A stretch of 63,969 bases of DNA, the filler included, from Folioceros fuciformis (taxonomy: Eukaryota): the NCBI GenBank assembly GCA_049999805.1. It is 7 parts of 7 records of this genome, joined end to end, with 100 filler letters (N's around TTAATTAATTAA, not from the genome) between each part and the next. Parts side by side here need not be neighbours in the genome. Positions count along the whole stretch, not along the records: positions 45,232 to 53,556 come from JBNGIO010005896.1; 6 more parts are not named here. One strand, given 5' to 3'. Below the pieces are notes generated by a model. It was not told the origin of the DNA. It did not search any database and saw only the letters and a program-made list of their open reading frames with translations. Both the position numbers and the translations under genes were made by a program. This document shows positions 13,648 to 61,217 of this stretch, one piece after another (the stretch's first letter is position 1; every line of letters starts with the position of its first letter).

Positions 13648-14098
13648 AGTTGTGGACTGAAATTTTGTGTTCGGGGTCACTGCAAGGTCCACACTAACCC
13701 TCTATGTCGTTGTAGCCATAGGATTCGCTCCCAAGGGAATGATTTGTGCCAAGTAACATAGGTTTCTTCTACTACAGACTCTTACCCAGGTCAGGCCTTA
13801 TCCACTACTGGTTCTACTACCTACTATGCCCTACCACTACCCCTCAGTTAGCCTAGCTACCGCGAACCCTACTCTACGACTCCGGGTCCTACTCTACGAC
13901 TGCGGTCACTGGTTTCGTGACCGGTAGTGGTCTCCACGACCGTGCTGGGTCCCACCTAAAACCCTAACTAATATTTTCCGGCGCACGCGCCACCGTGGTT
14001 TTCCACCACGGGTTTCTACCCCAAGGGCTTCCAGACTCATAGATTTGGTCTTATCGGATGCTCTCCACATATGCAAATGCCAATCCTTGGGGGGGCAA

Positions 14099-29867: not shown

Positions 29868-29967
29868 NNNNNNNNNNNNNNNNNNNNNNNNNNNNNNNNN
29901 NNNNNNNNNNNTTAATTAATTAANNNNNNNNNNNNNNNNNNNNNNNNNNNNNNNNNNNNNNNNNNNN
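29868..29967. other. Artificial contig spacer (44 N + TTAATTAATTAA + 44 N); the same spacer occurs at 45132-45231, 53557-53656, 56738-56837, 61470-61569 and 62810-62909
   Basis: Identical 100-nt construct with stops in all frames repeated six times. Confidence 0.97.
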
Positions 29968-30743: not shown

Positions 30744-30789
30744 GTAACTCTTGCCTTCAAATTAGGAGTTAAAGCCCGGCTCGCCTGGA

Positions 30790-33671: not shown

Positions 33672-35575
33672 TCACTCATACAGGTGGGAAGGTAAACGAG
33701 GCAGAGGGTTAGCCAGAAGAGGCTTGGCTCGAGGCAAGGTTAGGCCAAACTTCTCCTCCATATCCAACTCATCAGGTGCCTGACCCTGTGGCAGAGACCA
33801 ATCAAAGCTGTGCACCAGCCTCGCAAGAGAGTATTGCACCATAATCAGCCCCATGTGTATTCCAGGGCAAGATCGCCGCCCGGAGCCAAAAGGGAGCAGC
33901 TGGAAGTGCTGGCCTCGCACGTCGATGTCGCAGTTGAGGAATCTGTCAGGTTGAAATTCCAGCGGGTTCTCCCACACGTCGGGCTGCCGGGAGATGCTCC
34001 ACACGTTCACGAAGGCGGTGGTCCCGGGAGGGATGTAGAAGCCCCCCACCTCGCAAGCCTCGCTGCTCACATGTGGAACCAGTAACGGCGCGACTGGATG
34101 AAGGCGGAATGTTTCCTTGACCACAGCCTGTAAGTAGGGAAGGTTTGCGAGATCGGATTCTGTCACCACCCTCTCTTTTCCTACAACCTCGTCCAGCTCT
34201 TGGTACAGTTTCTGTAGAGTCTGGGGATTTCGGAGCAGTTCTGACAAGCCCCACTCCATTGTGATGCTAGATGTGTCCGTGCCGGCAGTGATCACGCTCT
34301 GCACAACATGCACAAACGATGTTCAGGGAACACTGAACAGTGTACTAATGCATCAAACATCCTCGACTGAACTGGACTGGACGTAAGCTTTTTAACATGA
34401 GGTGTACCATGGCCAGAGCCTTCATGACAACCTCCTCCATATGTGGAGCACCGTCTTCTCCAGGTAGGGAGAGCAAGATATCGACGTAGTTCCTGGCTTC
34501 GTGGTCATTCCTGGTCTGCCTATGCTCCTCGAGCACTGCTGTCAGGAAGGAGTCAAATCGCTGGTGAACTCGGCGCATTCTCTTCTCGTAGTTCATAATT
34601 CGGTCCAGGAAGGCCAAGGATGGGATGACATCTCCTATCAAGGAAACTCCATTCAGGAAAAAGAGTTCCTGGACCAGACTTCTAAATTCTTCGGCCAAGT
34701 CCTGCCCAGGAATTCGCAGGCTCAGAATAACATAACGCCGGCGAGCGAGATTCGTCCGTTAATTGGGACCAATTACGTACCTTTTCATCCCCTTTGTCGG
34801 ATTGACAGGATTTGGTGTAAGAGAAGAACTTTGTGCTCATCAAGATACGTGTCATTACGTTCATGGTGAGGAAAAACGTCCTTTGCTTCAAGTCCACTAG
34901 TGGGGACCTCTGACTGTCCTCCAGGATGGACTTCACCATTCTGGCCATCTCCTCATCCCTCACAGACTGGAACTGCTGAACCCGCTTCGCACTTAGAAGC
35001 TCGGAATTTGCAACCCTCCTGCGTTCCAATGTATCATGCATATGCAGCGGTAGCCAACGCAGCACACGTATGGACTAGAGCAGGTGTTTGGAATTCGATC
35101 GACCTGGTCGCTGGAACAGGTCCTACTGAACCAGCACGATGATCAGAATCGTGAATACTGACCTAAGAAATCTCCAGTGTGAGTTGTAAGATGCGAAGCC
35201 CATGGTGTTCTCCCCGTACGCCATGGCATCCTTGGCAGTCGTGGAGCGGCGGTTTGCGAACTCCCGGTCCTGAGTCTTGAGCACCTCTTTTGCCATCTCC
35301 GGAGAGGACACAACGATCGCCAGCCTCGACCCCAGCCGCAATGACATGATGGGGCCATACTGTCGGGCTAAGCGGTGTAGCTCCTCGTGCGGATGGCTGG
35401 AAGTTACAAGAAGGAAAAGGTTGCCGAAAACTGGCACCCCTGGCGGGCCGGGCGGTAGCCTCTCCTTCTGCCTGCTGCTCTGCTTCCAACGCTGCAGCAA
35501 CACAGCCAGCGCCGCCAGTACTAGCGCCAGGTACAACAACCAGTCCTTCAGATCGTGGGCCACGTACTCAGCCAT
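33672..35575 (-). CDS. Cytochrome P450, CYP71 clan (A-type), 4 exons (35575-35163, 35018-34781, 34701-34408, 34298-33672)
   Basis: Membrane anchor + LPPGPPG, AGTDTSS I-helix, KETFRLHP, PDRF, heme motif PFGSGRRSCPG; GT-AG introns in frame, no stops. Confidence 0.93.
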
Positions 35576-40215: not shown

Positions 40216-41546
40216 ACTAAGGCCCATCTCTGTAGATGGTGAATGGCTGGCCCATGCTGCTGAGGTTCTCACGTTGCTTCAGCTGGTCTGGACAGAGTGT
40301 CAGGAAGTGGCAGCCATGTGGAGTATGGAAGGGTGTCAGAAGATTGGAGCAGATTACTGGAGGAAGGCCGGCTGCATGAGGCGGTCCAAGCTTTGGACTT
40401 GTGTAGGGGTGGATCGTACATATCTGCAGAGAGGCTGTACAGGCTTCTGAAGGAGAACATTATAAACAGGGACCTGGAAGCGGGCAAATACATCCATGCT
40501 CTTACTGCCCATAGTGGGCATGAGGTGGATTCTTTTCTAGGGAACCACCTCATCCGCATGTATGCTTCTCACGGAAAATTGCTGGAAGCTAGGGATGTCT
40601 TCAGTAAGCTGCCTGCCTCTAATGTGTCATATGGGCTTCACTGATCTGAGCTCATGCTGATCGTGGACACGCTCAACGTGCTATACAACTGTATCAGAAA
40701 ATGCGGGACTCAAGCATAGACGCTAACGACAATATATTTGTGGCAGTCCTGAAAGCCTGTGCAAGTCAAGGAGATCTGAAATCAGGCAAGCTTGTCCATG
40801 AGGATGTCTTAAACTGTCAGGCTGAGTCCAATCTGTTTGTTGGCAGCGCTCTCATACACATGTTTGCAAATGGTGGGAGTTTGGAGGACGCCCACCAAGT
40901 ATTTGAAAGGGTGTCCACAAGGAACGTTGTCATTTGGAATGTGATGATAGCAGGATATGCTCAATATGGGCTTGGTGTGAAAGCCCTGGAGTTGTACAAA
41001 ACGATGCTCGAGGAGGGCTTGTCACCAAATGACGTCACATATGTAAGCATACTAAAAGCGTGTGGCAGCATAGGAGCCTTGCAGGATGGCAAACAGATCC
41101 ATGCTCAGATCCTTGCCGAGGGACTCCATGCTAGTGTCTTCATTGGGAGGTCCCTGATGAACATGTACAGGAAATGTGGGAGCTTGCGGGATGTGCAAAT
41201 ATTATTTGATGGACGGGTGAACAACAATGTGGTTACATGGAGGTCCATGATCGCAAGAAATGCTCAACATGGGCTTGGGCGTGACGCCCTTCGGCTTTAC
41301 TCGAGAATGCAGGAAGATGGCAGTGTGCCAGAACTCATAACATTTGTCAGCATTCTAAAGGCTTGTGCAAGCGTTGGAGCCATGCAAGATGGCAAGCAGA
41401 TACATCGTCAAATTTTGAAACGGGGACTTGGAGGGGATGCGCTTGTTGGAAGTGCCTTGATGAACATGTATGTGGAGTGCGATGACATAGATGATGCTCG
41501 AATTGTATTTGATGGATTGTCAGAAAGAGATGTGGTGACGTGGACC
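40216..41546 (+). pseudogene. PLS-class PPR pseudogene lacking E/DYW domains
   Basis: ORF 40297-40644 and ORF 40701 onward join via a 1-nt frameshift at about 40630 plus an in-frame TGA at 40646; PPR motifs end at DVVTWT. Confidence 0.85.
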
Positions 41547-44474
41547 GTAACTCTTGCCTTCAAATTAGGAGTTAAAGCCCGGCTCGCCTGGATGTGCCAA
41601 GCAGTAGCAGAATTTGAGAAGAGGTTGCCTTCCGATGGCTGGGCGAATGATGAAAGTAAGGTCTCACAAAACTCATACACAGAAGATTGCAAGTCAGAGA
41701 GTTTCCTGCAACGTTTGGAGCACGGGCTGCCGGTAATACCCGGTTCTCTGTTCACCAGGATTTACGTGGTTTCCCTCTTGCCAGGCTCTACTAGAAGCCT
41801 GAGGATATTCCCAGTGGAAGCAGTGCTGGTAGTGTAGAAGAGAGCTATTATCTCGAAACGACCTTGGACTCCGCAGACCGACAATTTGGTGAAAGAGTTA
41901 GTTTCAGTGACCCCAGACATTTTGGCAAAGGTTGATCACGCCTGCTACGTTGGAGCAGGTAGAAGCCCATCTACGCCAGAAAGAAGGAGAACTGGCATCA
42001 TACATGGCCCGACTGGTCTGTATCTCAACGGCTGTTTTTGGTAGTGAAAGTGCTCCAGCCAGGTCTGGAGTCAGGGTCGCTAGGTCTGGAGTAAGCAGGA
42101 ATCTCATGCTCTTGTTTGGTACTTCAGTTATCGCTCTTGTTATCTTGTTGGTTCACTTTCTACTCCTTGGTGCAGAATTCTTTGGGAAGTACTCGGAACT
42201 CACTGGCAGACGAGCTTGTGAAGCTCACCACACAGGGACGTTCGGTTTCAGAATGTGGACTAGGCTGCTTCGCGCACTTGATGAAATTTAGCCTCAGCAT
42301 CTGCAGTGTGAACACTATGGTCTGGAGGCACCTTCACTACCAGCATTGCGCGCTGAGTTTGATTCACTCCGCCGTCGACACACGTCAGCTTTGGAACTCA
42401 TGGGGGAACGTGATGAAGAGGTAATCTACGTTGCAGACAGTGGCCGCAATTGAACCTTCCGGATGAGTGTGACACTCGTCTGTTCCCAGTTGTCACAAGC
42501 TAAGAATGATGTGGCATGTGCTCAGTGCTACCTGGAAGACGAATCCACACATAATTCCCTCTGCTCCTCCAGAAGCCATTATGGTGGCGCCGCCTGCACC
42601 TCTTGTCATGATGATTAAAGGCCTCGACATACCGGAAGGGTACTGACGAACGCAGTCAACTGGTGTTCATAGAGGTTCTGGAAGCTTACCTTGCCATATG
42701 TGAGTTCATAGTGTTGAGGTGTAGAATGTCCACGTAACAGGAGTAGGGCCGGTTGTACAAAACTGTTCTACTTTCCTATGAACAGTATGAGCCTTCTCCT
42801 CGGAAGTCGTTGGCTATGGGGCGGCTGATGACGCCAGCGACTCCAAGACGACAACGCCCTTGAAGGTCGATTTGATGAATTTATCGTTGCTTCTGTGGAC
42901 TGTAGGGCTTCAGTGCCAAGCTGGGATGCGAACCATACTGTTGGACATGTATGAATATATCACTCGATTCAGTGGATAGAGAATCTACCAAGTAACAACG
43001 CAAAGTGCCTGGTGTTGTACTGTAGCTGCAATCTGTGTCGGAACAAGTACTCGAACCCGTGTAAGAACATGGGAGCTTCCAGGTGAATCTGTGAGAGTGC
43101 AGTTCCCTTGACAAACGTTATCCCTTGGGCACCATGAAGACGTTCGAGTGATGGAGGCCATTCTCGCAAGTGCTTACTCCATATGAAACATTTACGCGCA
43201 CAACTCGGAGGTGGGTAACCTGGTGTGTCTCTGTTGCGCGGTGGCACCGAGCAGGCAGAAATTCAGAAGCCTCGTGGCGCCGCATTCAGCCCACCTCTTG
43301 TACGAGTCCGCTGTCCAGCGTGAAGCATGAGGTGGCGCCTCGTCGGCGACGCGGGAAGGCAGACCGGTTGCGCGTGGCGAATGCGTCCCCAGTCTGCTAA
43401 CGAGGAGGCCAGCTCTATCTGCTGGCGCCCTGCGAATCGCAACTTCGCTTCCCAAACGTCCCGAACAAAACAAAACCCTGAACGCCGTAGGGCATGGTAG
43501 CACCACCCCCAGTGGCGGTAGCGGTCGGAACCCACCGTCCCCATTGGGTACTGCATAGCACGCTTAGGATCTGCACAGGAGATAGCGGTTCGCTCTGTTC
43601 ACTGCACGTGTCATCGCTGGAAGATGAGCTTGCTAAAGTGAGCTCCCTTGCCGCACGCGTAGCTTCCACAACCCCTTCAGCTGCCACTTTGTTTGGAATA
43701 GTATGGATTCTTCCCTAGTTCCGCAAGGACCGGATCCGGAGGACGATGAACGATGAACATCAGTATCTCAGATGCGTCAGTTGAGCTGGCCGTTGAGAAT
43801 CCAGAAGCTGTCTCATCGCTGGAAGATGAGCTTGCTACAGTGAGTTCCCTTGCCGCATGCTTTAGCTTCCACGACTCCTCGGCCGCCCGTTTGACTAATT
43901 TTGCGTTAGCTCCGCTAGGATCATAGCCGGCGACGTTCAATGACAAACGTCAGCGTTTCAAATGCGTCAGTTGCGCTGGCGTCGCGAATCCGGAGCCTTA
44001 GGGCTTGAAAGGTGGCCTTTTTCAGCGGGACTTCAGGTTTATCGGCAGACCACCCTGTCTTGGCAGAGGACAAATTCTGGAACCGGCAAAGGACCTAGCT
44101 GAAACTGATGTAAGGGTTTTATTACAAAGGTTCTTCAATATACAAGAAGGGTGAGTGACTTGATATTCACTAGCCAGTGCATCCGAGAAACACGTGCACA
44201 TCCACCTCCCACTACAGTAATTACGATCTAAGATTGATGTACCACGCACCTTCTGATCTGTGATGTGGTGATGGCTTCCTGGAGCCCAGAGTGAGCTAAC
44301 GAGCTACGAACAACCACAGACTGTACAGAACCACCTCAGCCAGCCACACAGGACGGTCTTCAGAATCTGCTGGATGAACGGACGGTCTTCAGAATCTGCT
44401 GGATGAACTGCCATCGTCGCTGCATCCTGACTATCCTTCGCAGATGTCTTCACTTGCTCTACAGATTTCATGAT

Positions 44475-45101
44475 TCACTCATACAGGTGGGAAGGTAAAC
44501 GAGGCAGAGGGTTAGCCAGAAGAGGCTTGGCTCGAGGCAAGGTTAGGCCAAACTTCTCCTCCATATCCAACTCATCAGGTGCCTGACCCTGTGGCAGAGA
44601 CCAATCAAAGCTGTGCACCAGCCTCGCAAGAGAGTATTGCACCATAATCAGCCCCATGTGTATTCCAGGGCAAGATCGCCGCCCGGAGCCAAAAGGGAGC
44701 AGCTGGAAGTGCTGGCCTCGCACGTCGATGTCGCAGTTGAGGAATCTGTCAGGTTGAAATTCCAGCGGGTTCTCCCACACGTCGGGCTGCCGGGAGATGC
44801 TCCACACGTTCACGAAGGCGGTGGTCCCGGGAGGGATGTAGAAGCCCCCCACCTCGCAAGCCTCGCTGCTCACATGTGGAACCAGTAACGGCGCGACTGG
44901 ATGAAGGCGGAATGTTTCCTTGACCACAGCCTGTAAGTAGGGAAGGTTTGCGAGATCGGATTCTGTCACCACCCTCTCTTTTCCTACAACCTCGTCCAGC
45001 TCTTGGTACAGTTTCTGTAGAGTCTGGGGATTTCGGAGCAGTTCTGACAAGCCCCACTCCATTGTGATGCTAGATGTGTCCGTGCCGGCAGTGATCACGC
45101 T
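44475..45101 (-). CDS. Last exon of the duplicated CYP71-clan P450 (rest cut by the contig end)
   Basis: Same translation as 33672-34298. Confidence 0.85.
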   Translation of the reverse strand, partial: SVITAGTDTSSITMEWGLSELLRNPQTLQKLYQELDEVVGKERVVTESDLANLPYLQAVVKETFRLHPVAPLLVPHVSSEACEVGGFYIPPGTTAFVNVWSISRQPDVWENPLEFQPDRFLNCDIDVRGQHFQLLPFGSGRRSCPGIHMGLIMVQYSLARLVHSFDWSLPQGQAPDELDMEEKFGLTLPRAKPLLANPLPRLPSHLYE

Positions 45102-45231
45102 CTGCACAACATGCACAAACGATGTTCAGGGNNNNNNNNNNNNNNNNNNNNNNNNNNNNNNNNNNNNNNNNNNNNTTAATTAATTAANNNNNNNNNNNNN
45201 NNNNNNNNNNNNNNNNNNNNNNNNNNNNNNN

Positions 45232-46166
45232 GCGTGAGTTGTAAGGAAACCTCTGGGATGACCATTCCCATCAAAGGCTCTTTGAACACGCACCTCTGGG
45301 AGATTATCAGGATTTCGAGGTGGAAGGGCAATTGCCAAGTGGCGCTGGTTAGGAAAGAGTACTTCAATTAAGGTATTGAATGATTCTCTTACTTCAAGAG
45401 CAAGCACAGGCTGATTTTGATTTTTGAAAATCCATTCAATTGTATGCTGATGAAGTTGCTCAACAACTATGTCTCTTGCAACTTCTGCTCCAGGTCCTCT
45501 GCGGCGATTATAGTGTTGTGGAATTCGCTCGGCAGGGCGAGGCTGCCACTGGTGCCCATTCAGTCGATTGGCCATTCATCAGGCCAGGTCTGATGTTGTT
45601 AAATGCTTTCTTTAAACATTTAATTTTTCTATATTTATTCTAATACTTTTCTTGCAGATTAGGTAGTTGTCCTTGAGCATTTCTGCTGAATTTGCTTTAA
45701 CAGCAAATCAGGAAAAATGCGCAAGGACGACTGCCTTATGTGCCAAGAATTGTGTCCAAAACTATAGAAAATAAACAACATAGACTTATTTTCTTGTTTT
45801 TATCTTCTTGATGAAGAACACATTTTTTTTTTAAAATCAAGAACTATAAAAACTATATGTAAATGCTTCTTTTTCAATGCATTTTTTAATGCAAATATAA
45901 ACCAATTAAATCTGCATATGGCTCTGATACCATTTCAGATTAAAGAAAATATGCAGAAACATATTTACATTAATTGGCTATATTACATTACATTCATACT
46001 TGTCATGTGTATGTATTCTTGATAAATAAGCCCAACTTAAACTACAGCTACTTACGAAACGGTACACCCCTTTGCTAAGCAGTGTAACCCTAGCGAACGG
46101 GTAAGTTAAATTATTTTAAACTGTAATAACTAGCCGCAATTATTAATTAGCACATATTATCCAACA
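45232..46166 (-). mobile_element. 5' end of an AT-rich LTR retrotransposon (LTR about 45933-46166, PBS 45921-45932, ORF from 45575) inserted into the gypsy element
   Basis: GCTCTGATACCA (reverse complement of the Met-i PBS); LTR start TGTTGG on the minus strand. Confidence 0.65.
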
Positions 46167-49129
46167 CTACCAACACACCAAGTCAGCCAAGGAGGACCTT
46201 GCCCACGGTGGTCAGTTATCCTGGTTCCTATGCATATAGGAATAATGGCCCTGGTATGCTCTTTAATGAGGATACCAAGGTGTGTGATGACGAAATATGT
46301 TGGTCTAATATAGCCCGCTTCCCGGAGCTAAGCGTAGTCTTTAGGTTAAGCATATACGCGGAATACGAACGGGCACGAAGCGTGCCCTAAAGAACCACTA
46401 CACGTCAACCGTCATACATGTTCACGGGACACGGCCATAAAAGATCTCACTCACACACATTAATTGAATTCATTCATCTTTCCTACTCTAGCCTGTCGAT
46501 CCTGTTCACGCTATGGGAGGAACCTACAGTGGAGGAGAGAACGGATAATGGGTTTTCATACTCACAGCATAGTAGCACCCCAAGCTTCCAGGGCACATAG
46601 ATTTGCAGCACTTGGCCGTGCTATAGATGTGAGTGATTTGACTTGGCTACTTAGCCTTTGTTTGGCTTTCCAGGTGTTCACCAGACCTCGGGACCAGGGT
46701 CCCCACATCCAGACCCTATCCTATCATCCGGATGTTGTTTCTACCATTCCCTAGATTTCGTTACCAATCCTATCAGCTTGATGTAGGGGGGGGAGCACAT
46801 GTCTCCCAAACTTGTTTTTGCTCCGTCGGAGCTAGATTCAGGACCAGGATTGTCAGCAGCTGTCAAACCTCCACCTATTGCGGAGGCCTTTAAGTGGATT
46901 ATGGGTCCTCAGCTAGACTCGAGGCATAAATAGCAGATTCGGGCCCTTATTTCGCAACACTCGGACTATTTTGTCTTCAGCATGAAGGATTTGAAGAGGT
47001 GCAAAGTTATGACGTTCAGGATCAACCTCAACACTACTGAGCCGGACTATACGTGCAAGTATAGGTTGAGCCAATCTAAATGGGAGATTGTGGAAGCACG
47101 CTGCCAAGAGTTGTATCAGGCTGGACTAATCAGACCTTCTAGCTCTGATTACACAGCCGCCACTGTCCTTCCACCCAAGGAGGACAACCAAGGCTTTTGG
47201 ACTAAAAAGCAAATGTGTGGGGAGAACCGCCCCATCAATGCAGCAACAACACTTGATAGGTATCCTAGGCCTACGCCGGAAGAGCTGTTCGACAACATTG
47301 GACAATCCAAATTTCTTCTCCACATTGGATCTGCAATAGGGTCTCAACCAGGTGCCAGTGGTACAAGAGGATATACCCAAGACAACATTTCATGGAGCTC
47401 ACCAGTTGTGGGAGTGGCTGGTCATGCCTTTTGGGTTCAAGAATGCACCAGCAACCTTCCAAAGAGTCATGGACAAGGTACTGGTAGGGGCCCCTCACCT
47501 TTTGTGCTACATAGATGATATGCTGGTACACAGCGTGGACTTTGACACTCATCTAATCCATCTAGAGGACCTATTTCGAAGGCTGCAAAAAGCTCAGCTA
47601 ACGTGCCACCCAGCCAAGTGTGAATTCGCCATGGATACGGTGGCCTACCTAGGTCACAGGATCCTACCATATGGTATAACACCACATGCTGCCAAGGTTC
47701 AGGCAATCCAGCAGATCCAGGCTCCAACCAATGTGTCCACTCTTAGGGCATTCTTAGGACTGTGCAACTACTACAGGGCTTTAGCAGCATTGCTAAGCCT
47801 CTGAATGATCTGTTGCGCAAGGAAACAGCTTGGGACTGGGCAGATAATTGTCAAGCTACATTTGAAAGTTTGAAAAGCAAACTAATGCAGATGCCAGTTA
47901 TGGCCAGGCCTAACTTTGCCAAGCCATTTTTTCTCCATACAAACTGGAGCACTTGGGGCTGGGAGCTGTATTAGCACAAGTGGATGCTGAAGGTCAGGAG
48001 AGGGTCATTGCCTATGCCTCAAGAAGCAACAACAGGGCATAAAGCAAACTACTCCGGCTATAAAGGGGAGCTGCTTGCAGTAGGCAATTTGTCATTTTCG
48101 GCCTAACCTATATAGGCGAAAGTTCATATTGGTGACAGATCATCAGCCCTTGAAGTGGCTGATGTCCAACATCAAGCTTAGCAGAAAGCTTGCAAGGTGG
48201 GCCATGATACTCTAAGACTATGAGTTTGAGGTGGTTCACAGGCCTGGAACTAAGCACCAGAATGCAGATGTGTTGTCACATCAGCCTGGGCAGAGTAGTG
48301 ATGACAACACTAACGCTCGCCAGGACAGTGACATGGAAGAGGCACCTAATGCTGCAGCTTTGGTAACTATGTTGTGCGTGGCACAGGGTTGCACTAACAA
48401 TCTTTTCCAACCACACAAGGATGTGTGGAGTGATGAAGTCACACTTCAGTACATGAAGACTGGACACATGGATGTTAGTCTGAATGCACACCAGCAAGAG
48501 AGGGTGAAGCAGAGAGAGCAGCTCGCTATGAGTGGAGGGATGGTTATTTGTTGAGAAGACTGACCAAAAGGAATGAACGACTGGTGCCACCACCACATAA
48601 GCATGTAGGACTGATTCATAGAGTACATGAAGACTTAGGTCACTTTGGTGTGAAGCGCAATTATAGCTTGCTTCTCCCCCATTTCCACTGGCATGGAATG
48701 TTCACACAGGTGCATGAGGAAGTAGCCAAGTGTGCTCAATTTGACAGTCAAGGCCTCCTTTAGCAACCCTCACTTAGAGTTATAGCCACTGCCCATCATG
48801 GGACTATTCTTCAGGTGGTCCTGTGACTTGGTTGGGGAATTTCTGCACACACCAAGTGGAAATGTTTATATCATGGTCATGATTGAACACTTTTCAAACT
48901 GGGTGGAGTTGGTGGCGCTGCCAGACAAGGCCTTATGCAACACAGCTCAAGCCTTCTTACACAATGTGCTTAGCCAGTTTGGGAGCAGCGCCGAGGGTTT
49001 GACTGAACAGAGGGCTGAATTCAGGGGCTAGATGCTACGCTCATTGATCATTGGCGGACCAGTCGCAATCACCCTCAGGTAGATGGATTGGCCGAGAGGA
49101 TGGTGCAAACCATCAAACGTGCATTGAGG
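46167..49129 (+). mobile_element. Degenerate Ty3/gypsy pol: C5 DNA methyltransferase C-terminus (46167-46680), then RT, RNase H and integrase
   Basis: RT KKQMCGENRPIN, MPFGFKNAPATFQR, YIDD; RNase H ERVIAYASRSNN, TDHQPLKWLM; integrase H..LGHFG..C..F, RWSCDL; upstream peptide resembles DNMT motifs IX-X. Confidence 0.85.
46280..46510. mobile_element. 231-bp solo-LTR-like insertion splitting the DNMT-like region
   Basis: Removing it joins ...FNEDTK to LWEEPTVEER in frame; ends TGTGA...TCAC(G); no clear TSD. Confidence 0.5.
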
Positions 49130-51852
49130 TGTTGAAATGGATGGACTCCACAGTACATTCCTTATGGTGCATAGGATGCTACATATATAGCCTTCAGGCG
49201 GGGCCACCTTTGATAAGGTAAGCCTTAGTCTCGAAGGTGCAATATCTTGGTATATCCTGATAACACTTAGGTGGTAGATAACTACGAATTCAATATGGGA
49301 TAATCTACACTATCCTAAGTGTTGTATGCTCTTAATAACAATTCAATTAGAGCTTGATTTCTAACACTCCCCCTCAAGCTCAGACTATTTGTAACAATCC
49401 AAGTAGTTCACGAAAGTGTAAGAACTTATCTGCTACCTGGTCTTCGGTCTTCACGTGCCAAAGATCTATCTTCTCAGATAATACCACTTCCTTGATGAAA
49501 TGATAATGTACTTCTATGTGCTTCGACCGAGCATGAAACACAAGATTAGTAGCCAACCTCATGCTACTCATGTTGTCACAGTAGATTGTGACCTCGCTGT
49601 TCACTATATTTCCAAGATCATGTACCAACTTTTGCAACCAAGCTGCTTCACAGGCTGCTATTGCAGCTCCTCGATACTCTGCTTCTGTGCTTGGCAAAGC
49701 AAATGTCGGTTGTTTCTTGCTTTGCCAGCTAATCATACTACTTCCCAGACTGAATGCATATCCACTGGTTGATCTTCTGTCATACGCACAACCAGCCCAA
49801 TTAGCATCTGTATATCCTATCAGTTCAAGATGCTTCCTATGCTCATAGAGTAATCCAAACTCAGTAGTTCCTTTCACATATCTCATGATTCTTCTAACTG
49901 CATCCAAGTGCGGTTTCCTTGGGTTCTACATGAATTGACTAATCAGTCCTACTTCATAACTTAAGTAAGGATGTGTGATAGTCAAGTAGATCAAAGTTCC
50001 AACCATCTGTTGATACATGGTCACATTTTCTAGCTCAGTTCCTCCATCCATTTGCAGCTTAACGTTCTACTCCAATGGTGTATCCATCACTTTGCAATCT
50101 GCCATGCCATACTTCTACAGCATATCCTTATCATATTGTTTTTGCAATAGCCAGATTCCTTGAGGTGTAGACACAACCTCAATTCCTAAGAAGCATCTGA
50201 GTTCACCAAGATCCTTCACCTTGAACTCTTTTTGCAGATTCGCCTTGACATCTGTAATACCATCTGCATTATCTTCTGTGATGATCAAGTCCTTAACATA
50301 AACGACAAGACACACTTGTCCTACCTTGGTTTGTTTTACAAATAGACTGTGATCTGCGTCTCCAATCACAAACCCTCGCTCCTTCAAATAGCTTGTGATA
50401 CAAGCATTCCATGCTCTAGGTGCCTGTTTGAGTCCATACAATGCCTTCTTCAATTTGCATACGTACGTTGGAAACTTAGGATGAACATAGCCTGCAGTCT
50501 ATTCCACGTACACTTCCTCCTGCAACTCACCATTCAAGAAAGCATTCGTGACATCCATTTTCCATAACTTCCATCCTTTAGCTGCTGCTAATGCTATGAC
50601 TGTCCTTACAGTTGTCATCTTGGCTACTAGACTAAAGGTTTCCTCATAATCAAGACCATACTGTTGTGCATATCCCTTTGCAACCAACCTGGCCTTGTAA
50701 CGCTCCAGCATTCCATCTGACTTGAACTTCAGCTTGTACACCCACTTAGAACCAATAGGAACCTTGCCATCAGGCAATTGAACCAAATCCCACATTCCGT
50801 TCTCAACTAATACTAAGTATTCTTCATCCATGGCTTGACACCACTTATCATCTGTCACTTCCTCAGCAAACTTGGTTGGCTCCTTACAAGCTGTGCAAGA
50901 TATTAGGCCCGGATATTAGGCCCTTGTCATATACGCATAATGTTGCATATTGTAGCTTGTATAGGTGTACCTGTGAATGGGTCTCCTTGGTCTTAGTTCA
51001 GTTTGAACCTGCCTTATATATCATTGCTCCTTAGCACCTGCCGTTTCCACAAACGGAATGCCAACCTCACTGTCAATGCTCTCACTACTTGAGGATTCAT
51101 ATCCCTCATTTCCAATTTTGCTGCTTTCTACTCTCCCCCTCACTGACATGTCCGGGTCAGTGGTCTTGGGTTTACCATTCCGCAGTCTTCTAGACCATGG
51201 ATTCACCGTTGGTGATCCACCATTGGTCACATCCTCACTCTTTGCTGGAGTACTCTTAACAGTACTCTCCCCTGTGGGTTTGTCATAGGGTAGTGCAACT
51301 GAGTTGCTATACCAGGAGGCTAACTCATCAAATACCACATCCCTGCTTATCAAGATCTCATGTGTGGATGGCACATAACACTTATCTGCCTTCCTATTTC
51401 GTGCATACCCCAGAAAAACACTCTTCACTACTTTAGGATCCAGCTTCCTACGCTTCTCATCAGGTACATGCACATATGCTATGCACCCAAACACTTTAAA
51501 GTGCCTAATATCCGGCTTATAGCCATATAGTCTCTCAATTGGTGTAGCATCATGAATTCCTGCCGTAGGAGTTTGATTTAGTACATACACTGCTGTCATC
51601 ACTGCTTCTGCCCAATAATCATTAGGTAACCACTTCTCATTCAGCATTGCCCTTGCTGTTTCCATGACTACCCTGTTCTTCCTCTCTGCAACACCATTCT
51701 GCTGAGGTGTGTATTTGCAAGTCAGCTGTCTTCGTATACCATGATATGGAAGATACCTGTCAAACTCATTTGAGACATATTCTCCCCCTCCATCCGATCT
51801 CAGTCCTTGAAAGACTCGAACACTTCATCCTTATGCTTCAATATGTACAGCC
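49130..51852 (-). mobile_element. Ty1/copia family B, 3' part (3' LTR 49130-49366, RNase H, RT, integrase), inserted in the gypsy integrase
   Basis: TG...CA LTR followed by PPT reverse complement CTCCCCCTCAAG; motifs [35 protein letters not shown]. Confidence 0.9.
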
Positions 51853-53556
51853 TGTAGGATCACTAGAGGAGCATGGTGGAGGAGAGGAGGCAGAGAGGAG
51901 AGGAGAAAAAGAGGTCACATTGAGAGTGATTGGCAAGGGAGCTCAAGGGGGTATTTATACCCTCTAGAAGAGCTCCCTAGGAAGCTTCACAAGAAGCTCA
52001 CAGGAAGCTGCGCAAGAAGCTTCCTACAGATTAGCTTAAGCTAATCTAAACTAATGATACTTAACTAGACACTAATCTTAGACTAAACACATTAGCCTAA
52101 GCACATTGGGCTTTAATAACCCTACAACCTCCCACTTAAAGGCCAATTTACCTTCATAAGAGAGTGGTCTAGCTCATGCCCATGAGTGTCCGAGCTTGTG
52201 CGAATTGCTCCGTAGAGAGCCCCTTGGTAAGAACATCTGCAGGGTTCTGACTAGTGTGAACTTTGACAAGCTGTACCCTCTTGTCTTCCAACACCTCTCG
52301 AATGAAGTGATACTTCACTTCCACATGTTTGGTCTTCGCATGAAACACTGGATTCTTCGCCAACTGGATAGCACTCTGGCTATCACAATGCAACACTGGC
52401 AGCTCACCCTTGATCCCCAAATCTCCCACTAAACGAGCAAGCCACATGGCTTCCTTGCAAGCCTCAGTCGCTGCAACATACTCGGCCTCTGTGGTAGATA
52501 GCGTTATGCACGATTGCAAACGAGATCGCCATGAGACTGCCCCTCCAGTGCACATGAAGACATAACCTGATGTGGACCTCCTTTTGTCCATATCCCCTGC
52601 ATAATCAGCATCCGTATATCCCACTACAGATGCATCTTCACTACCAAAACATAAGCACAAAGCTTTTGTACCATTCAAATACCTCATAACTCCTTTCACT
52701 GCCTCCCAATGCTTCCTGCCAGGGTTTGACATGAACCTGCTAACCACTCCCACTGCAAAAGCAATGTCAGGACGTGTAGCAATCATTGCATACATCAAAC
52801 TCCCTACAGCTGATGAGTATGGAACCTTCTCCATTTCAGCTTTATCCTCCGCAAAACTTGGGCAATCCTTGCTCGAAAGTTTCACATATGGAGGCAACGG
52901 AGTACTTAAGACCTTCCCCTTCTCCATATTGAAACGTTCAAGCACCTTGTTAATGTATTCTGTCTAAGATAAGTACATCAAACGCTTCTGTCTGTCTCGA
53001 CAAATACGCATGCCAAGAATATGGCTTGCCTCCCCCAAGTCTGTCATGTCAAAGCGACCATTCAACTTTGACTGCAACGCTGAAATCTCATCAATGTTAG
53101 TCCCAGCAATTAGCATATCATCCACATAGAGGACTAGAATGAGCAGGCTTCCATCCTTAGCTTGCTTCATATAGAGGCAATGATCCATATCGCTACGCTT
53201 GTAGCCTTGAGAAAGCATAAATGAGTGGAACTTGAAATACCACTCCCTGGGTGCCTGCTTCAAACCATAAAGGCTCTTCTTTAACTTGCACACCAGACTC
53301 TCTTTGCCCTTCTCAATGAAACCCTCTGGTTACTGCATGTATACCTCTTCCTGGAGATCACCATGCGAAATGCCGACTTCACATCTATCTGGACAAGTTC
53401 CATGTCGTTCCTCGCAACCAGACCAAGAATACATCTCAAGGTAGTCATTTTGACAACTGGTGAGAAAATCTCATCAAAGTCAATACCTTGCTGTTGCTTA
53501 AAACCTTTAGCAACCAATCGTGCCTTGTACTTGGGTTTGCCATAATGGGGTATGTC
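51853..53556 (-). mobile_element. Ty1/copia family A, 3' part (3' LTR 51853-52126, RNase H, RT), inserted in the family B integrase
   Basis: LTR homologous to the 14099 and 26047 LTRs; PPT AAGTGGGAGG; LYVDDMLI, YTDADYAGD, STTEAEY. Confidence 0.93.
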
Positions 53557-53656
53557 NNNNNNNNNNNNNNNNNNNNNNNNNNNNNNNNNNNNNNNNNNNN
53601 TTAATTAATTAANNNNNNNNNNNNNNNNNNNNNNNNNNNNNNNNNNNNNNNNNNNN

Positions 53657-54547
53657 TCCTGTACGATCTGGTTAATACTGTCACTGGCCATTCTTGCCAC
53701 CACTCAAGGTTGACACTCAATCCTTTCTTGAGTACTCACACCTGATAAATGTCTGAAAGAACCAGACTGCTTCTGACTGGAGTTTTACTCACAAGACCTT
53801 AAGTCTCTTCTTCCTAAGAGCAATCTGGTGCGGAATCACGGTGCCTTGCGTGAACCAGATTGTCTCATGCTCCGTGTCCTTACAGACTCTTGACTGTCTG
53901 CCCACAAAGCTCCCGTGAGATTTCCTGTCAATTCCTTTCCTGCTGCCAAGCTAGGGTTAGCACACTTTCTTGCAGCTGCTGAGGCTATTGCAGCTGTTGC
54001 CTCCACTTGTCAGCCCTTCCACAGAGCTCTGGGGATCAACAGCTAGTCCAGTAAGCTGACAGGGCCTTGTCGCCCTTCTCCTCACTTCCTGCACACACCG
54101 ATATGAGAGTTAGCTACCGGGACGCTTGCTGCCGATCTCCCTCCAAGCTGCTCCAACTTCTCGTAGCTGCTCTAGCTTCTGGTGTGCACTCTTGCTGCCT
54201 CTTGCAGCACCTCCTACGCCGATCTTGCACCGCCTGCACCGAGCTCTGATACCATGTCAATAGGATCGACTCCAGTCTACGTGCAAGTGTAGGAGAGGAG
54301 AGGAGAGAAGAGAGGGTGGTATTGGTGATCACAACCATGAAAACAATACACATCACCACTGTCTTACTATGGAGGTCCGAGGTTTCCATTTAAGTAGTAC
54401 ATTTAGGGCTACACAACTTCCAGGTTCAATATGGGATAATCTACACTATCCTAAGTTCACTAATAACTAGAACTAGTCTAGTATGAACCCAACTGGGATA
54501 ACTAACACCACATGAGTTTAGCTCATATAGAGCTCGATAACTCAACA
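53657..54547 (-). mobile_element. 5' LTR (about 54255-54547), PBS (54243-54254) and leader of a family-B-related copia
   Basis: GCTCTGATACCA then TG; shares TTCAATATGGGATAATCTACACTATCCTAAGT with the LTR at 49130-49366; LTR outer end uncertain. Confidence 0.7.
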
Positions 54548-54789
54548 AGAAAGCCCTTAGTACAGGCGTGCTCCTAGTGGGTGGGAAGCCTAGTGATGGT
54601 TATGTTGGCAGAGAGGGTGGGTTGTCACTTCTGATGCCAAGCCTACAAGGTGCTCATTCAGGGGCACTAGAGGGGTAGTTTTTCCGGGTNNNNNNNNNNN
54701 NNNNNNNNNNNNNNNNNNNNNNNNNNNNNNNNNNNNNNNNNNNNNNNNNNNNNNNNNNNNNNNNNNNNNNNNNNNNNNNNNNNNNNNNN

Positions 54790-56737
54790 CATTGGCTTAG
54801 TAAATATATCGGCTATCTGCTCGTCTGTGTTGACATACACAAGATCAATAGCTCCAGATAAAATCCTTTCGCGAAGAAAATGATAATGTATTTCAATGTG
54901 TTTTGTCCTGGCATGAAACACTGGGTTTCGCGCCAACTGTATGCTGCTAAGATTGTCACAGTAGATAACAACCTTGTCGTTGACCTGCAATCCAAAATCT
55001 CCGAGTAACTTACAAATCCAAGTCACTTCACACGCTGCCATTGCTGCGCCTCTGTATTCAGCTTCTGTACTAGACAAAGCCACTATAGGCTGCTTCTTGC
55101 TACTCCATGTAATTGCTGCACTCCCAAGTGAAAAAATGAATCCACTTGTAGATCTACGATCAGTAACACTGCCTGCCCAATCTGCATCTGTGTACCCATA
55201 CAGGTTTATTTCTAAATCTGCAACATAAAAGAGAGCATGATCCATAGTTGCCTTCACATAGCGCAACGTTCGCCTTACTGCATCCAAATGTGGCTTTCTT
55301 GGCGCCTGCATAAACTGACTTTGCAATCCCACTGTATAGTTCAAATCTGGTCGGGATAGAGTGAGATATATCAAGCTACCCACAATCTTCCTGTACATTG
55401 TTGGATCTTCAAGTGCTTCACCATCATGAGCACTGAGCTTTAGATTTTGATCCAAAGGAATCGAGATTGGCTTGCACTCAACCATACCATACTTAGTTAG
55501 TACATCCAACGCATACTTCCGCTGTGACAGCCAAATGCCTGTGTTGGTTTGTATAATTTCAATGCCCAAAAAGAACCTCAGTTCACCTAGGTCCGCCATC
55601 TTGAACTCTTGTTGTAGAAGTTCCTTGATCTGCTCCACTTGATCCAACTGATTACCTCCAATGATTAGATCATCCACATAAATGGTCACAAAGACCAGTC
55701 ATTTTGTACTTTTGCACACATACAACGAATGATCCGCATCTGCCATGTTGAATCCGATGTGAATCAGATGCTGAGCAAGACGCTCATGCCAAGCCCTCGG
55801 GGCTTGCTTCAGTCCGTACAACGTTTTTTTCAGCTTGCACACATGATTTGGATGATCCAAATCCTCATAACCTGGTGGCTGGTCCATGTATACTTCTTCC
55901 AGCAAATCTCCATGTAAAAACGCATTCTTCACATCCATATGATGTAGGACCCAACCTTTCGATGCCGCTAGTGCGATCACGGTTCGAATTGTTGCCATTT
56001 TGGCAACTGGACTGAACGTCTCCTCAAAATCTATTCCACATGTCTGGGCATATCCCTTGGCCACAAGCCTTGCCTTGTACCTGTTGATACTACCATCTGC
56101 ATTGTGTTTGACCTTGTACACCCATTTGCAACCTATTGGTTTTTTGCCTTCAGGTAATTGTACTAGGTCCCATGTTGCATTCTGATTTAACGCATTCATT
56201 TCTTCATCCATAGCATGTTCCCACTTTGTGTCTCCAATAGCTTCTTCAAAGCTTCTTGGTTCCACATCCTGTACAACCTTTGCCATATAGGCATGGTGCC
56301 TAGCTACATAGCTATCATAGGTCAACCGCTGTATTGGAACCTTCTGCCTTCCAGATCTCCGTGGGATTGAACCACTTCCAGGGGTTGATTGAACCTCTTT
56401 TGCACCAGGTGTTTCGATTTTCGGTACACCGAATTCCTCATCCAAGCTCTGCTCAGAGTCGCTTGAATCATCCGCACCTGCACTTAGGTCTGGTATCTTT
56501 GAATCCTGGACTTTTTCCTTCCCTTTGCGAGACACAGCTGTGGAGCTCGTAGGACTCACACTACCTCGCAACCTGCCACTCCATGGATTCTGAACATTTG
56601 TCGAGTTTGATGACGCTTGCGGTCCACTCAACACTTGTGATTGTTGACCTGCATTGCTTGTTACCTCAGTTTCAAGCACATCAGCTACACTACTTCCTTG
56701 TACTTCAAAGTACCAGCTACCCATTTCATCAAAGACT
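54790..56737 (-). mobile_element. Ty1/copia family-B-related RT/RNase H
   Basis: [32 protein letters not shown]; linker NPWSGRLR shared with ORF 51021-51665. Confidence 0.92.
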
Positions 56738-56837
56738 NNNNNNNNNNNNNNNNNNNNNNNNNNNNNNNNNNNNNNNNNNNNTTAATTAATTAANNNNNNN
56801 NNNNNNNNNNNNNNNNNNNNNNNNNNNNNNNNNNNNN

Positions 56838-59800
56838 TATTTGGGCATTACGTATGCGAGGAGCATTAAGACAAAGAGCATTATGGGGTATCGTTGATGG
56901 ATCCATAACAAGACCAAGGTCTCATGAAGAACGTGAACTTCAGATTTCCTAGGACGCCAGGGATGAGAAGGCACAAGATTTATTGATAAGTGGACTCTCT
57001 CAACAAATGGTTAGGCATGTTGCACATGCAAAAACATCTCATGAAATGTGGTCTCACCTTGCTCAATTATATTCATCACAAGATGTAATGAGTATTGTGG
57101 CAGCCTCTCGTAATTTCCGTAACTTGTCTATGAAAGAATCCGATACAATTGAACATCATATTAATGCTTTCAGACAAGCACGCTCCCAAGTTGAATCTGC
57201 GACTAGTGTTCCTATATCAAAGATGGAAGCTTATGTCACTCTTCTGTCTTCATTGCCTTCCTCCTATCGTCCATTCATCACTACTCAAAACGCAGTTATA
57301 CGTAATTCACGGAGAATTGCAGATGATGGCACAAAAGGGTTTGACATAAGTGTTTCTGAATTGATCGAAGCACTTCTTCAGGAGGAGGCAAGTAGGCGCC
57401 ATACTCACTCCAGGCCTAATAAACAACAAGTAATGTACTTGCAGAGAGGCAGAGGAAGAGGACGAGGCAGAGGCAGAGGCCGAGGTTTCTCTTCCCAGCG
57501 TCCTCTATATTCTTCGCCAAGTACAAACATTGGAGAAAGCTCTTCATCCACACCTTCAAAGGGTAAAAAGAAGAGCGGCATCATATGCAATTGGTGTAGG
57601 ATCCCTAATCATATGGAAAAGGACTGTCGCAAAAAGAAGAATGGTGAACCTCGCAAGGAGGCTTCACATGGAGTTAATGTAGCATCCAAAAAGCAAACTT
57701 CATCAACTCCAACAGTGCTCACTGTATGTTTGGCATCATCCAAGCCTGCTAATACCTCATGGTATTTAGACTGTGGAGCAACATCACATAGATGTTACAA
57801 CAAAAGTTATTTCCAATCATACTCACCAACCACAGGACATCAATCTATCCTCTTGGGAGATGATCACAACCCGCCTATCGAAGGTATTGGTTCTGTTGTA
57901 CTGACATGTGATTCTGGACAAGTCCTTCACCTCCACCAAGTCCTCCATGTTCCATCAATGTGCAAGAATTTATTATCAGTTGCAAGTATCTGTCAAATCC
58001 ATTCTATGCAAGTGACCCTCTTTACAGATAGTTGCTTTCTCTCTTACGTAGGTGATAGCAATCATATCATTTGTAGTGGTACTTTAGAAGATGGCCTTTA
58101 TAAATTGTCGTCCTAGTAGGAGGTCAACAATCTGCTCATGTCGCCAGTTCTTCGCCTCAAAGTCCCTCTCCCACAATGTTATGGCATTGTCGTCTTGGTC
58201 ATCCAAATAGTCAAAAATTAGTACAAATGTCTAAGGCAGGAAATTTATACCGCACACCCTGCCTCTCTCACATTCAACACGTCTCATGGTGTGAAACTTG
58301 TGTCATTACCAAAAGACATCAAGCCCCCTTTAAGAACATCTCCCCACAGAGGGCGAAATGTCCTCTAGAGCTTGTTCATACATATATTCGTGGCCCTATC
58401 TCTACACCTTCTTTCAGTGGTAGCAGATATTTTATGACCTTCATCGACGACTACTCTCGGTTTACCCTTACCTATATCTTAAGTCATAAAGGAGATGTTT
58501 ATCGTTACTTCCAGGACTATATGGTATGGGCTGAGAGGCTAACTGAGAAGAAACTCAAAACCTTACGTTCTGATAATGGTGGCGAATTCACTTCCAATCA
58601 ATTTACGGATTTTTGTCGCCTTTGCGGTATTGCTCAACAACTTACTGTTGTTTATACTCCGCAACAAAATGGCGTAGCTGAAAATAAAAATCTACGTCTT
58701 CAAGAGATTACTAGCTGCCTGTTAAACCAAGCAAAGTTACCGAAGGTATACTGGGCCGAAGCACTCCTCACATCCACATATCTCATGAATCGACTGCCCA
58801 CTTCAGCAGTCCAAGATATGACACCTTATAAAGCCTTTATAGGCAGAAAGCCCTCCATAGAACACCTCCGCATTTTTGGATCTCCGGCATATGTATTTGT
58901 CCCCAAGGCATTAAGAAGGAAGGTCGACCCAAAGGCCGTAAAATATACCTTTATTGGTTATTCAGAAGGAATCAAGGGTTATAAATTGTTTGATCCTTTT
59001 ACTAAGAAGCTTCTCTATGCTCGCAGCGTCACTTTTCATGAACATTCCCTATTTTCATCTTCAGTGGGAGATGTTTTGTCTCCTCACCTTTCATCTAAAG
59101 ATATAGAATATGAATGTTCTTCCTTTGATGCTAGTGACTATATTGTGGATTTTCCTGATCCCGCTCTCCAACTTCCCTTCGATGGACCTGTCATGCAGGA
59201 GGAGGAATTAGGACCTGAACGGCGTCCTGACACACCCGCATCCGACACCGACACAGCGGAGGAGGAGGAGCAATTTCCACATTCATCTGATCCCATTGAG
59301 GCCATTTCGGAAAATGCAGTACCTCCTGTTTTAGAAGACAATGATCAGTTGGAAGCTGATGATGTTGAAGAAATGGACCCTTTAGAACATGAAGATGAAC
59401 TAGTTCCTGTGAAAGATACACTTGCACCAAGGTACAACCTTAGATCACGTCCACTAATCTTCGGCCCTGCTGGTTGAAAAGAACCTCCTTTGGGATATCT
59501 TGCTATTTTTCCTGATTCTAACTTTCCTGAGTCTCTTTATAATCAAGCTGTGTATGCAGCCACTGTAGACTTAGAAGAGCCCCTTACCCTAAAACAAGCC
59601 TTCTCCTCTCCCTCCAAACATCTATGGAAGGCAGCTGTAGACTCAGAGTATAATTCCCTTATTAGTAATTCTACATGGAAATTAGTTGAACCTCCTAAGG
59701 GTAGAAAAATAGTAACCAGCAAATGGGTATTTAAGATAAAGAGAAAAGGAGATGGATCGGTGGAAAGGTATAAAGCACGTCTAGTTGCTAGAGGTTTTAC

Positions 59801-61217
59801 TCAAGTCCGTGGACTAGACTACATACCTTGGGCCACTTATGCTCCTGTAGCTAAGTTTGCTACTCTTCGTATGATTTTCGCTATATGTGCCCAGTATGAT
59901 CTTGAACTTCATATGATGGATGTGAAGACACCATACTTGTATGAGCGCTTGAAAGAAGAAATATACATGAAGCAACATGAGGGTTATGAGGTCAAAGGAA
60001 AGGAGCATTTAGTATGTAAACTCATTAAGGGCATATACGGACTCAAGCAATCCGGCAAAAATTGGAACTTGACTATCCACATACAACTCTTGAACAAGGG
60101 ATTTAAGCAAAGTAAAGGTGATGCTTGCTTATACATTTACCTTAAGGAAAATGATATATTTTACCTTTTACTATACGTCGATGACGTTTTTATGGCAACA
60201 AACTCTCTCATTCTCCTAGCTGAGATAAAAGCATGGCTTCGCACATTATATGAGACGACCGACTTAGGAGAAATGAATTATGCACTTGGAGTAAATATTA
60301 TCCGTGATAGGAGTAATAAAAAGTTGAGCATAGTTCAAACCAAGTATATAAAGGAGAGTTTAGCAAAGTTTGGAATGGAAGATGCAAAGCCTGCACCCAC
60401 ACCTTTTGCTAGTGGCATNNNNNNNNNNNNNNNNNNNNNNNNNNNNNNNNNNNNNNNNNNNNNNNNNNNNNNNNNNNNNNNNNNNNNNNNNNNNNNNNNN
60501 NNNNNNNNNNNNNNNNNNGAGAAATTGGAAATGGCATCTGTCCCATATCGACATGCTGTTGGCACACTCATATATTTAAGCAATTTTACTAGACTTGATA
60601 TTTCTTTTGAAGTCAGCTCTTGTTCACAGTTTTTGGAGAACCATGGACATCAACATTGGATGTCAGTTAAGCGTATTTTCCGTTACCTTAAAGGGACTAT
60701 GCAAACAGGACTGACATTTAAGCATACACCAACAATCAAAACATTAACACTTACGGCATATGCCGATGCTGATTATGCTGGTAACCCTGATACACGAAAA
60801 TCCGAATCAGGTTATGTTTTACTTCTTGAAGGAGCTCCAATATCATGGTCCAGTAAGAAACAGCCTACCATAGCCTTGTCTAGTATTGAATCTGAATATT
60901 GAGTACTAACCTCTGTTTCCAAGGATATTGTATGGTCTAGGCTAGTCTTAAGTGAACTTAATCACCTTTAGCAAAAATCAACACCTCTCTTTAGTGATAG
61001 TCAGGACGCCATAGCACTTGCTAGAAACCCTGTTTTCCATTCTAGAACTAAACACATAGCTATTGAATATCACTATATCAGAGAAAAGTTGGAAGATAAC
61101 ACTATAGATATCACTTATATACCAACACAAAACAATCTAGCTGATTTATTAACAAAGTCATTAGGGAGAGATCTACATTTAAAACACATGAAAATGTTAG
61201 GAATTCAAGAGGTTTAA
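56838..61217 (+). mobile_element. Ty1/copia family C, nearly complete gag-pol (few stops and frameshifts), LTRs not seen
   Basis: gag with RG repeat and CNWCRIPNHMEKDC, protease WYLDCGAT, LWHCRLGHP, RSDNGGEF, LYVDDVF, ADADYAG, RTKHI. Confidence 0.93.

Follow-up and report, generated by a model that had tools for sequence, protein, structure and literature searches.

A dead Ty3/gypsy element of Folioceros fuciformis with a putative DNMT3-type methyltransferase remnant ahead of its reverse transcriptase

Introduction

Hosts keep transposons in check mainly through cytosine methylation, which makes a transposon with its own de novo methyltransferase counter-intuitive. Does the genome of Folioceros fuciformis hold such a transposon? 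The question is raised by a 63,969-nucleotide stretch of this genome (assembly GCA_049999805.1; hereafter the window, along whose whole length positions are counted), in which positions 46167 to 49129 on the plus strand read as the end of a cytosine-5 (C5) methyltransferase directly followed by the reverse transcriptase (RT) of a Ty3/gypsy retrotransposon. The original prediction, made from the sequence, held that this genome hosts or hosted a retrotransposon family encoding its own DNA methyltransferase inside pol.

In the accessible parts of de Mendoza et al. 2018 (PMC5890265), a DNMT3 is described inside the Pol of a gypsy element of Klebsormidium nitens and DNMTs are described in DIRS and long interspersed (LINE) elements of Symbiodinium, in agreement with the known cases that the prediction had named, namely Klebsormidium and dinoflagellates. 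The role of retrotransposon-borne methyltransferases remains unclear according to the same text, where methylation of cDNA after reverse transcription is one of several proposals. For streptophytes, the later papers PMC12344493 and bioRxiv 10.64898/2026.05.21.726589 cite only that work in their accessible parts. Full-text literature, including the accessible portion of a review on transposable elements of land plants (PMC9033089), yielded no description of such elements in embryophytes; coverage of subscription journals is thin, and their absence from the literature, which the prediction had also supposed, is likely, not proven.

We report that 46167-49129 is a degraded Ty3/gypsy pol with about 95 C-terminal amino acids of a C5 methyltransferase, a linker, RT, RNase H and integrase. 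Very probably it is a dead copy, truncated at its 5' and 3' ends, of a family whose pol holds a DNMT3-type enzyme between protease and RT. It is most likely a land-plant representative of the DNMT3-carrying Ty3/gypsy elements, a design otherwise described, in the accessible literature, from Klebsormidium and dinoflagellates.

Results

The methyltransferase piece and its relatives

Read directly from the window, frame 2 of 46151-46279 gives a translation containing ...TNTPSQPRRTLPTVVSYPGSYAYRNNGPGMLFNEDTK (the same stretch is also given as ...TLPTVVSYPGSYAYRNNGPGMLFNEDTK). Past an extra block the frame resumes with ...LWEEPTVEER, and after a frameshift 46533-46690 reads RERIMGFHTHSIVAPQASRAHRFAALGRAIDVSDLTWLLSLCLAFQ in frame 0. 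The peptides at 46167-46690 were therefore recovered as predicted once a 231-bp block and a 2-nt shift had been removed, and some contigs of other copies are free of these lesions. RT lies directly 3' of this piece on the plus strand, and the gypsy pol order RT, RNase H, integrase is present in the window (Pfam RVT_1, Integrase_H2C2 and rve, and colinear tblastn matches to the family proteins P0012 and P0020; Table 1).

An exhaustive phmmer search with the 96-aa piece (P0002) against 1.84 billion representative proteins gave eight matches at E<=0.001. Seven of them (E 5.1e-8 to 1.6e-4) are genuine relatives, short proteins aligned across the whole conserved stretch, and they pass directly from ...PTLVSYPGSHAFR..GPG... 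into ...EP..ERERAMGF...LGQAMD...TW...CLAFQ, without any extra block. The eighth match, P0004, is a repetitive protein that aligns at residues 8-29 only and was dropped. A profile of the relatives matched 28 longer proteins (E 1.8e-35 to 1.4e-14), of which 18 carry a precomputed PF00145 assignment, 15 carry retroelement domains (RT, RNase H, integrase, protease or gag knuckle) and six carry both; Pyramimonas is also named in the table of these 28 matches. In the Protein Atlas, 14 of 30 matches of P0002 fell in a set with PF00145 in 12% of its members, which is a lead only.

When compared by hhalign with the family alignment A2, which has 14 members, the piece from 46167-46282 (P0001) matched positions 365-398 (probability 97.8%, E 8.2e-13) and P0002 matched positions 410-479 (probability 98.0%, E 1.8e-13), so that the two fall on adjacent positions of the profile. 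Positions 411-451 of A2 align in turn to residues 246-286 of DNMT3A in the structure 2qrv, the third aligned stretch and the part that survives in the window. The prediction had assigned the second half of the peptide to C5-methyltransferase motifs IX-X, which these alignments bear out; similarity to C5 methyltransferases, for which the direct Pfam search was empty, is clear by way of the A2 profile. The putative assignment of the window piece to motifs IX-X and the closing part of the target-recognition region, inside a gypsy pol between protease and RT, is supported.

Methyltransferase piece and RT in one element

Searching the window with 51 family proteins by tblastn gave colinear matches over 46166-49129, and in nine of the 51 the DNMT piece and the RT region were each matched, in the right order; these nine include single open reading frames (ORFs) that span DNMT and RT. 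Residues 209-248 of P0012 match 46172-46291, residues 254-324 match 46536-46739, residues 347-537 (the linker, 45.6% identity) match 46760-47308, and residues 533-820 match 47295-48143; the alignment of P0020 (residues 793-1010, up to 79% identity at its end) reaches the integrase at 49129. Thus the segment adjoins RT in other members of the family, and the prediction of a methyltransferase inside pol stands, since relatives keep the colinear order DNMT, linker, RT, RNase H, integrase.

The clean RT ORF of the window is 61.6% identical over 146 aa to that of P0012, 58% to P0058, 56% to P0030 and 51% to P0074, and 34-40% to relatives of another domain order described below. In an RT tree of 11 rows the window ORF groups with P0012, P0058 and P0030 (support 96/93). 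The window RT is 61.6% identical to that of a relative with both DNMT and RT, so that methyltransferase and RT are here two parts of a single element.

Type of methyltransferase

The relatives have their motifs in normal order: I as LFGGI, IV as GWPCQ or GWECQ, VI as ENV or ENT, VIII as HRLRxxWTN, IX as ERERAMG and X as LGxAMD. Searched against PDB, the A2 profile matched 57 sequences at E<=0.01, and the top 29 of these are all DNMT3A, DNMT3C or DNMT3B (E 3.9e-26 to 1.9e-20, 76-95 bits). The next matches are tobacco DRM (7.3e-10, 41 bits) and M.HhaI (5.6e-9, 38 bits), followed lower down by DRM2 (2.4e-7, 33 bits) and DNMT2 (about 5e-7, 32 bits). The prediction had called the domain DNMT3/DRM-like. 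The DNMT3 half of that name holds and the DRM half does not, because the motif order is unrearranged and DRM enzymes score far lower.

Motif IV, scored by pattern match, is GWPCQ in 12 and GWECQ in 13 of 25 relatives, many of these rows being near-copies of one another; P0039 additionally has GTPCQ. GWECQ is mostly paired with ENT in place of ENV in motif VI, and the variant is seen in both of the domain orders described next.

The family and its domain order

By Pfam scan, P0012 contains DNA_methylase at residues 39-125, RVT_1 at 502-655 and RNase H at 718-816. P0017 has a protease at 605-700 and a methylase from 924, and P0018 combines a gag zinc knuckle (zf-CCHC) with the methylase. The cluster mate of P0017, P0074, is one ORF of 2300 aa that carries a protease (635-730), DNA_methylase (954-1085), RVT_1 (1395-1548), RNase H (1612-1741), integrase (1877-2042) and a PHD finger (2252-2296). 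A PHD finger (PF00628) ends the integrase in P0020, P0032, P0033, P0035, P0037, P0074 and P0093, and the window copy is cut before that point. Chromoviruses have a chromodomain at the corresponding place after the integrase.

The DNMT3-like domain occurs at two places in gypsy pol. In 13 proteins (P0012, P0016-P0018, P0020, P0022, P0024, P0027, P0030, P0034, P0048, P0053 and P0055) it lies between protease and RT, as in the window, and in nine (P0029, P0031-P0033 and P0035-P0039) between RNase H and integrase. The two groups stand on opposite sides of one branch of the RT tree, with weak support (79/92). One family cluster with nine named members is annotated at NCBI from the leafy liverwort Calypogeia fissa, which is independent evidence for the family in land plants. 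All six motifs are present in P0019, which represents this cluster.

Other copies in the same organism

Four sequencing runs of one organism (X1-X4) were matched to the window at 80% likeness; all are contig sets, in which depth is not copy number. We found 464 (X1) and 421 (X2) contig pieces that fit the stretch, and the family is multi-copy since these pieces are spread across identity classes, all of which are represented.

Two contigs of X1, one of X2 and two of X4 lack 231 or 232 bp of the stretch from 46282 to 46514/46515, which places the extra block at 46283-46513 (+/- 2-3 nt). Its length equals that of the predicted block, 46280-46510. A 2-nt length difference at 46534 appears in four contigs of X1, three of X2 and one of X4, and a further one at 46739 in contigs of other copies. 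As other contigs are free of them, the 231-bp block and the 2-nt shift are lesions private to the window copy or to a subset of copies. Within the 231-bp block, a core has more summed contig depth than its flanks, with loose ends at 46361 and 46441, and on these grounds the core occurs elsewhere in the genome. A tRNA-like structure and a target-site duplication were searched for in the block and none was found.

Upstream of 46167 the other copies continue with different sequence, for 86 nt in X1 and X2 and for about 172 nt in two X4 contigs. The X4 consensus ends in ...ERAPWF, in frame with ...TNTPSQ... of the window, where the relatives have ...PPWFPAN.... The family in this genome therefore retains more of the methyltransferase than the window copy does, since its contigs extend upstream with DNMT-like coding sequence. 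Contigs of other copies also span the DNMT piece and, overlapping, the linker and the start of RT.

Run X3 differs from window positions 45300-49400 by C>T at 209 places and G>A at 128, while every other change occurs 2-27 times. The pattern resembles that of a library made from the same sample after bisulfite or enzymatic conversion, and the run could yield the methylation state of the DNMT-gypsy family.

State of the window copy

Table 1. Features of the gypsy fragment and its borders in the window.
Feature	Position	Strand	Evidence or remark
AT-rich block	45594-46166		adjoins the break; starts TGTTG, ends CAACA
End of DNMT target-recognition region (...PTVVSYPGSYAYRNNGPGMLF...); 5' truncation point of the element	46167-46282	+	hhalign, colinear tblastn, contig divergence upstream of 46167
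231-bp copy-specific insertion splitting the DNMT frame	46283-46513		missing in relatives; skipped by contigs
DNMT motif IX (EERxRIMGF), motif X (LGRAID) and next conserved helix (LTWLLSLCLAFQ)	46514-46690	+	phmmer, hhalign
2-nt frameshift in the motif IX-X segment	near 46534	+	contigs of other copies
DNMT-RT linker, degraded; frame change near 46739-46760, in-frame stops	46691-46933	+	tblastn
Reverse transcriptase, YIDD box kept; one frame change near 47300	46934-47804	+	RVT_1 E 9.2e-21
RNase H, heavily degraded; several frame changes and stops	47780-48380	+	tblastn with P0012, P0020, P0031, P0035, P0037, P0039
Integrase zinc-binding domain and catalytic core, cut at 49129	48479-49129	+	Pfam Integrase_H2C2 E 3.1e-9; rve E 7.7e-6 (under curated cut-off)
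Start (TGTTG...) of very high-copy element cutting the integrase	49130-49400		contig depth jump

The window copy is dead, as predicted: at least eight frame changes and several in-frame stops lie within 46167-49129, both ends are truncated, protease and gag are missing, and with no catalytic motif left it can do nothing. The ratio of observed to expected CpG is 0.35 in the element, equal to that of the neighbouring copia, 0.61 in the whole window and 1.35 in the 231-bp insert, which is the pattern of what would be an old, methylated and deaminated repeat holding a younger insert.

The 5' break at 46166/46167 is real, for contigs of other copies part from the window exactly there. The prediction had motifs I-VIII cut off at 46166 by insertion of a long terminal repeat (LTR). 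Their loss at this point was borne out by the tblastn search and by the contigs that diverge at 46167, but an LTR insertion as its cause was not established. The 573-bp block upstream (45594-46166) may be the LTR of an inserted element and is a candidate only; its TGTTG/CAACA ends are a 5-nt terminal match over 573 bp, which is near chance, and there is no second copy of it within the window. A tRNA scan and repeat search of 45232-49400 gave no tRNA-like short interspersed element (SINE), LTR pair or target-site duplication. At the 3' end, beyond the integrase, summed contig depth in X1 rises from 76 to 5948-14664 at 49136-49400.

Genomic surroundings

The window contains a P450 gene (Pfam p450, E 2.6e-66) together with PPR and LRR genes. 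In the Atlas the P450 piece lies among CYP76C/71B-like clusters of Streptophyta and is CYP71-clan-like. A 4361-bp stretch with the PPR gene and the last P450 exon is found at 29968-34328 and again, 100% identical, at 40771-45131. Both copies adjoin runs of N, and the duplicate reflects either an artefact of the assembly or a tandem duplication of very recent date. The N run 45132-45231 truncates the second P450 copy; this run and those at 29868-29967, 53557-53656 and elsewhere have a fixed pattern of 44 N, 12 bases and 44 N.

At least four nested copia-type pol fragments, on both strands, occupy 49130-60902, 3' of the gypsy fragment. Copia pol is read on the minus strand from 49380, and in X1 the summed contig depth climbs as high as 14,664 within the first 270 bp of the nest. 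A second, distant gypsy integrase at 24000-24998 (+) has about 26% identity to P0020, and there is no DNMT-like match nearby.

Discussion

Could the methyltransferase piece be a fragment of a host DNMT3 gene or pseudogene that came to lie beside an unrelated gypsy element by chance? Host DNMT3 genes are present in non-seed land plants, according to the accessible parts of PMC6453930, and the fragment is short and truncated. However, the DNMT piece, the linker and RT are colinear with nine separate proteins, the linker itself resembles that of P0012, and contigs of other copies bridge the junction, so that we hold such a chance neighbourhood to be very improbable. Still more remote is a chance likeness of motifs in the degraded protease or spacer of an ordinary gypsy pol. 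Gypsy elements normally have a protease ahead of RT, and the first small profile, A1, reached DNMT3A and DRM2 at E 0.37-1.4 only (18 of its 21 matches were these two enzymes). Yet the window pieces match the family at E ~1e-13 and the family matches DNMT3A at E ~1e-26, and the relatives have their protease upstream of the DNMT. The peptide ...DVSDLTWLL was considered as a degraded protease end motif and ruled out by the PDB profile matches and by the protease-DNMT order of the relatives.

That the fragment belongs to a family with a DNMT3-type enzyme in its pol has several points against it nonetheless. Single-sequence window peptides gave no Pfam match at E<=10 and none in PDB, and word-index protein searches with P0002 and with the linker/RT read-through (TAG as X) gave no match. 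Motifs I-VIII, including F-x-G-x-G of motif I, Pro-Cys of motif IV and E-N-V of motif VI, have no match anywhere in the window in tblastn with the 51 relatives. Flank repeats, an LTR pair, a primer-binding site and a polypurine tract were not found in the window, where the element is truncated at 46166 and 49129. The closer affinity of the methyltransferase to DNMT3 than to other C5 families is suggested by a ranking of PDB profile scores, and the land-plant nature of the host is judged from the P450, PPR and LRR genes. An AlphaFold model of P0019, made with A2, is poor (mean pLDDT 46.3, pTM 0.36); DNMT3A/B/C come first when it is searched by Foldseek (E about 2e-7, TM<=0.42, rmsd about 14), which adds little. 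Finally, about half of the relatives, including the closest by RT, have Glu-Cys instead of the canonical Pro-Cys, and a Glu-Cys motif IV may mean altered or lost catalysis.

This last point bears on whether, in this sub-lineage, the methyltransferase-like domain is a pseudo-enzyme that has lost catalysis or taken on another role, retained in pol to bind DNA or chromatin and not to methylate. The substitution of GWECQ, usually together with ENT, in just over half of the scored relatives speaks for it, and so does the membership of the Glu-Cys set, which includes P0012, P0013 and P0042, P0012 being the closest in RT identity and both P0012 and P0042 being colinear with the window. On the other side, the nucleophile Cys, the motif VI Glu, R-x-R of motif VIII and motifs IX and X are nearly invariant across the family, as expected of a working enzyme, the remaining relatives retain Pro-Cys, and the window itself is without the motif IV region. 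We consider a pseudo-enzyme unlikely.

In intact relatives the enzyme is translated within Gag-Pol, where the gag zinc knuckle comes first, then protease, DNMT, RT, RNase H and integrase, often with a PHD finger at the C-terminus. The motifs conserved in relatives, together with published work, suggest that in intact copies it would methylate cytosines de novo. Its target may be the element's own new cDNA or the insertion site, an idea put forward in the accessible text of de Mendoza et al. 2018 (PMC5890265).

The degraded multi-copy family in this genome and the full-motif proteins of a liverwort widen the range of the phenomenon to land plants and point to hosts that lend themselves to genetics and to methylome profiling. 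The existence of two domain orders, along with the PHD finger and the Glu-Cys variant, suggests a modular reshuffling of epigenetic domains in one retrotransposon lineage. We tentatively propose, as a possibility somewhat short of an even chance, that land plants (at least the liverwort and the organism of the window) host an old, diversified Ty3/gypsy clade with a DNMT3-type enzyme, an integrase PHD finger, two pol positions and Pro-Cys and Glu-Cys forms. If this is true and some copies are still active, element-encoded de novo methylation would run alongside host RNA-directed DNA methylation and DNMT3 in embryophytes, and it could be dissected in bryophyte model systems.

Comparison with known systems

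Like KnitGypsy-Dnmt3 of Klebsormidium nitens (PMC5890265), which was compared by the description in the accessible text, the family has an unrearranged DNMT3-type enzyme within a gypsy Pol of a streptophyte, and key catalytic residues are kept in intact copies of the one as in relatives of the other. In contrast to that alga, the present host is most probably a land plant, and one relative is annotated from a liverwort. The relatives here also have a PHD finger after the integrase and two DNMT positions in pol, features set beside a KnitGypsy-Dnmt3 known by text description only.

SymbioDIRS-Dnmt3 and SymbioLINE-Dnmt of Symbiodinium are likewise retrotransposons with a C5 methyltransferase encoded in pol or next to it, and SymbioDIRS-Dnmt3 methylates CG de novo, as stated in the accessible parts of PMC5890265. 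Their retrotransposon classes are different ones, in which a tyrosine recombinase or LINE endonuclease takes the place of the DDE integrase, and the host lineage and the acquisition differ too.

Host DNMT3 enzymes (DNMT3A/3B structures, and PpDNMT3b as far as described in the accessible text of PMC6453930) are the best profile matches of the family at 76-95 bits, with the same order of motifs I-X and a similarly short distance between motifs VIII and IX, about 100 aa. The family differs in having no PWWP/ADD or plant DNMT3 companion domains, in its place within a retroelement polyprotein and in motif IV, which is GWPCQ or GWECQ compared with G-S-P-C-N of DNMT3A in the A2 alignment to PDB. DRM2 has a DNMT3-related catalytic domain and weakly similar motifs IX-X, but it scores 33 bits compared with 95, and the order of DRM is circularly permuted (PMC5890265, accessible text) whereas that of the family is normal.

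The EpiLTRs and DAM-LTR retrotransposons (bioRxiv 10.64898/2026.05.21.726589, accessible text) are also Ty3/gypsy-like, with a DNA methyltransferase and chromatin-reader modules. Those elements, whose hosts are chlorophytes and euglenids, encode adenine methyltransferases as well as a C5 enzyme that is DNMT4-related and comes with chromodomains, whereas the family described here combines a putative DNMT3-type enzyme with a PHD finger.

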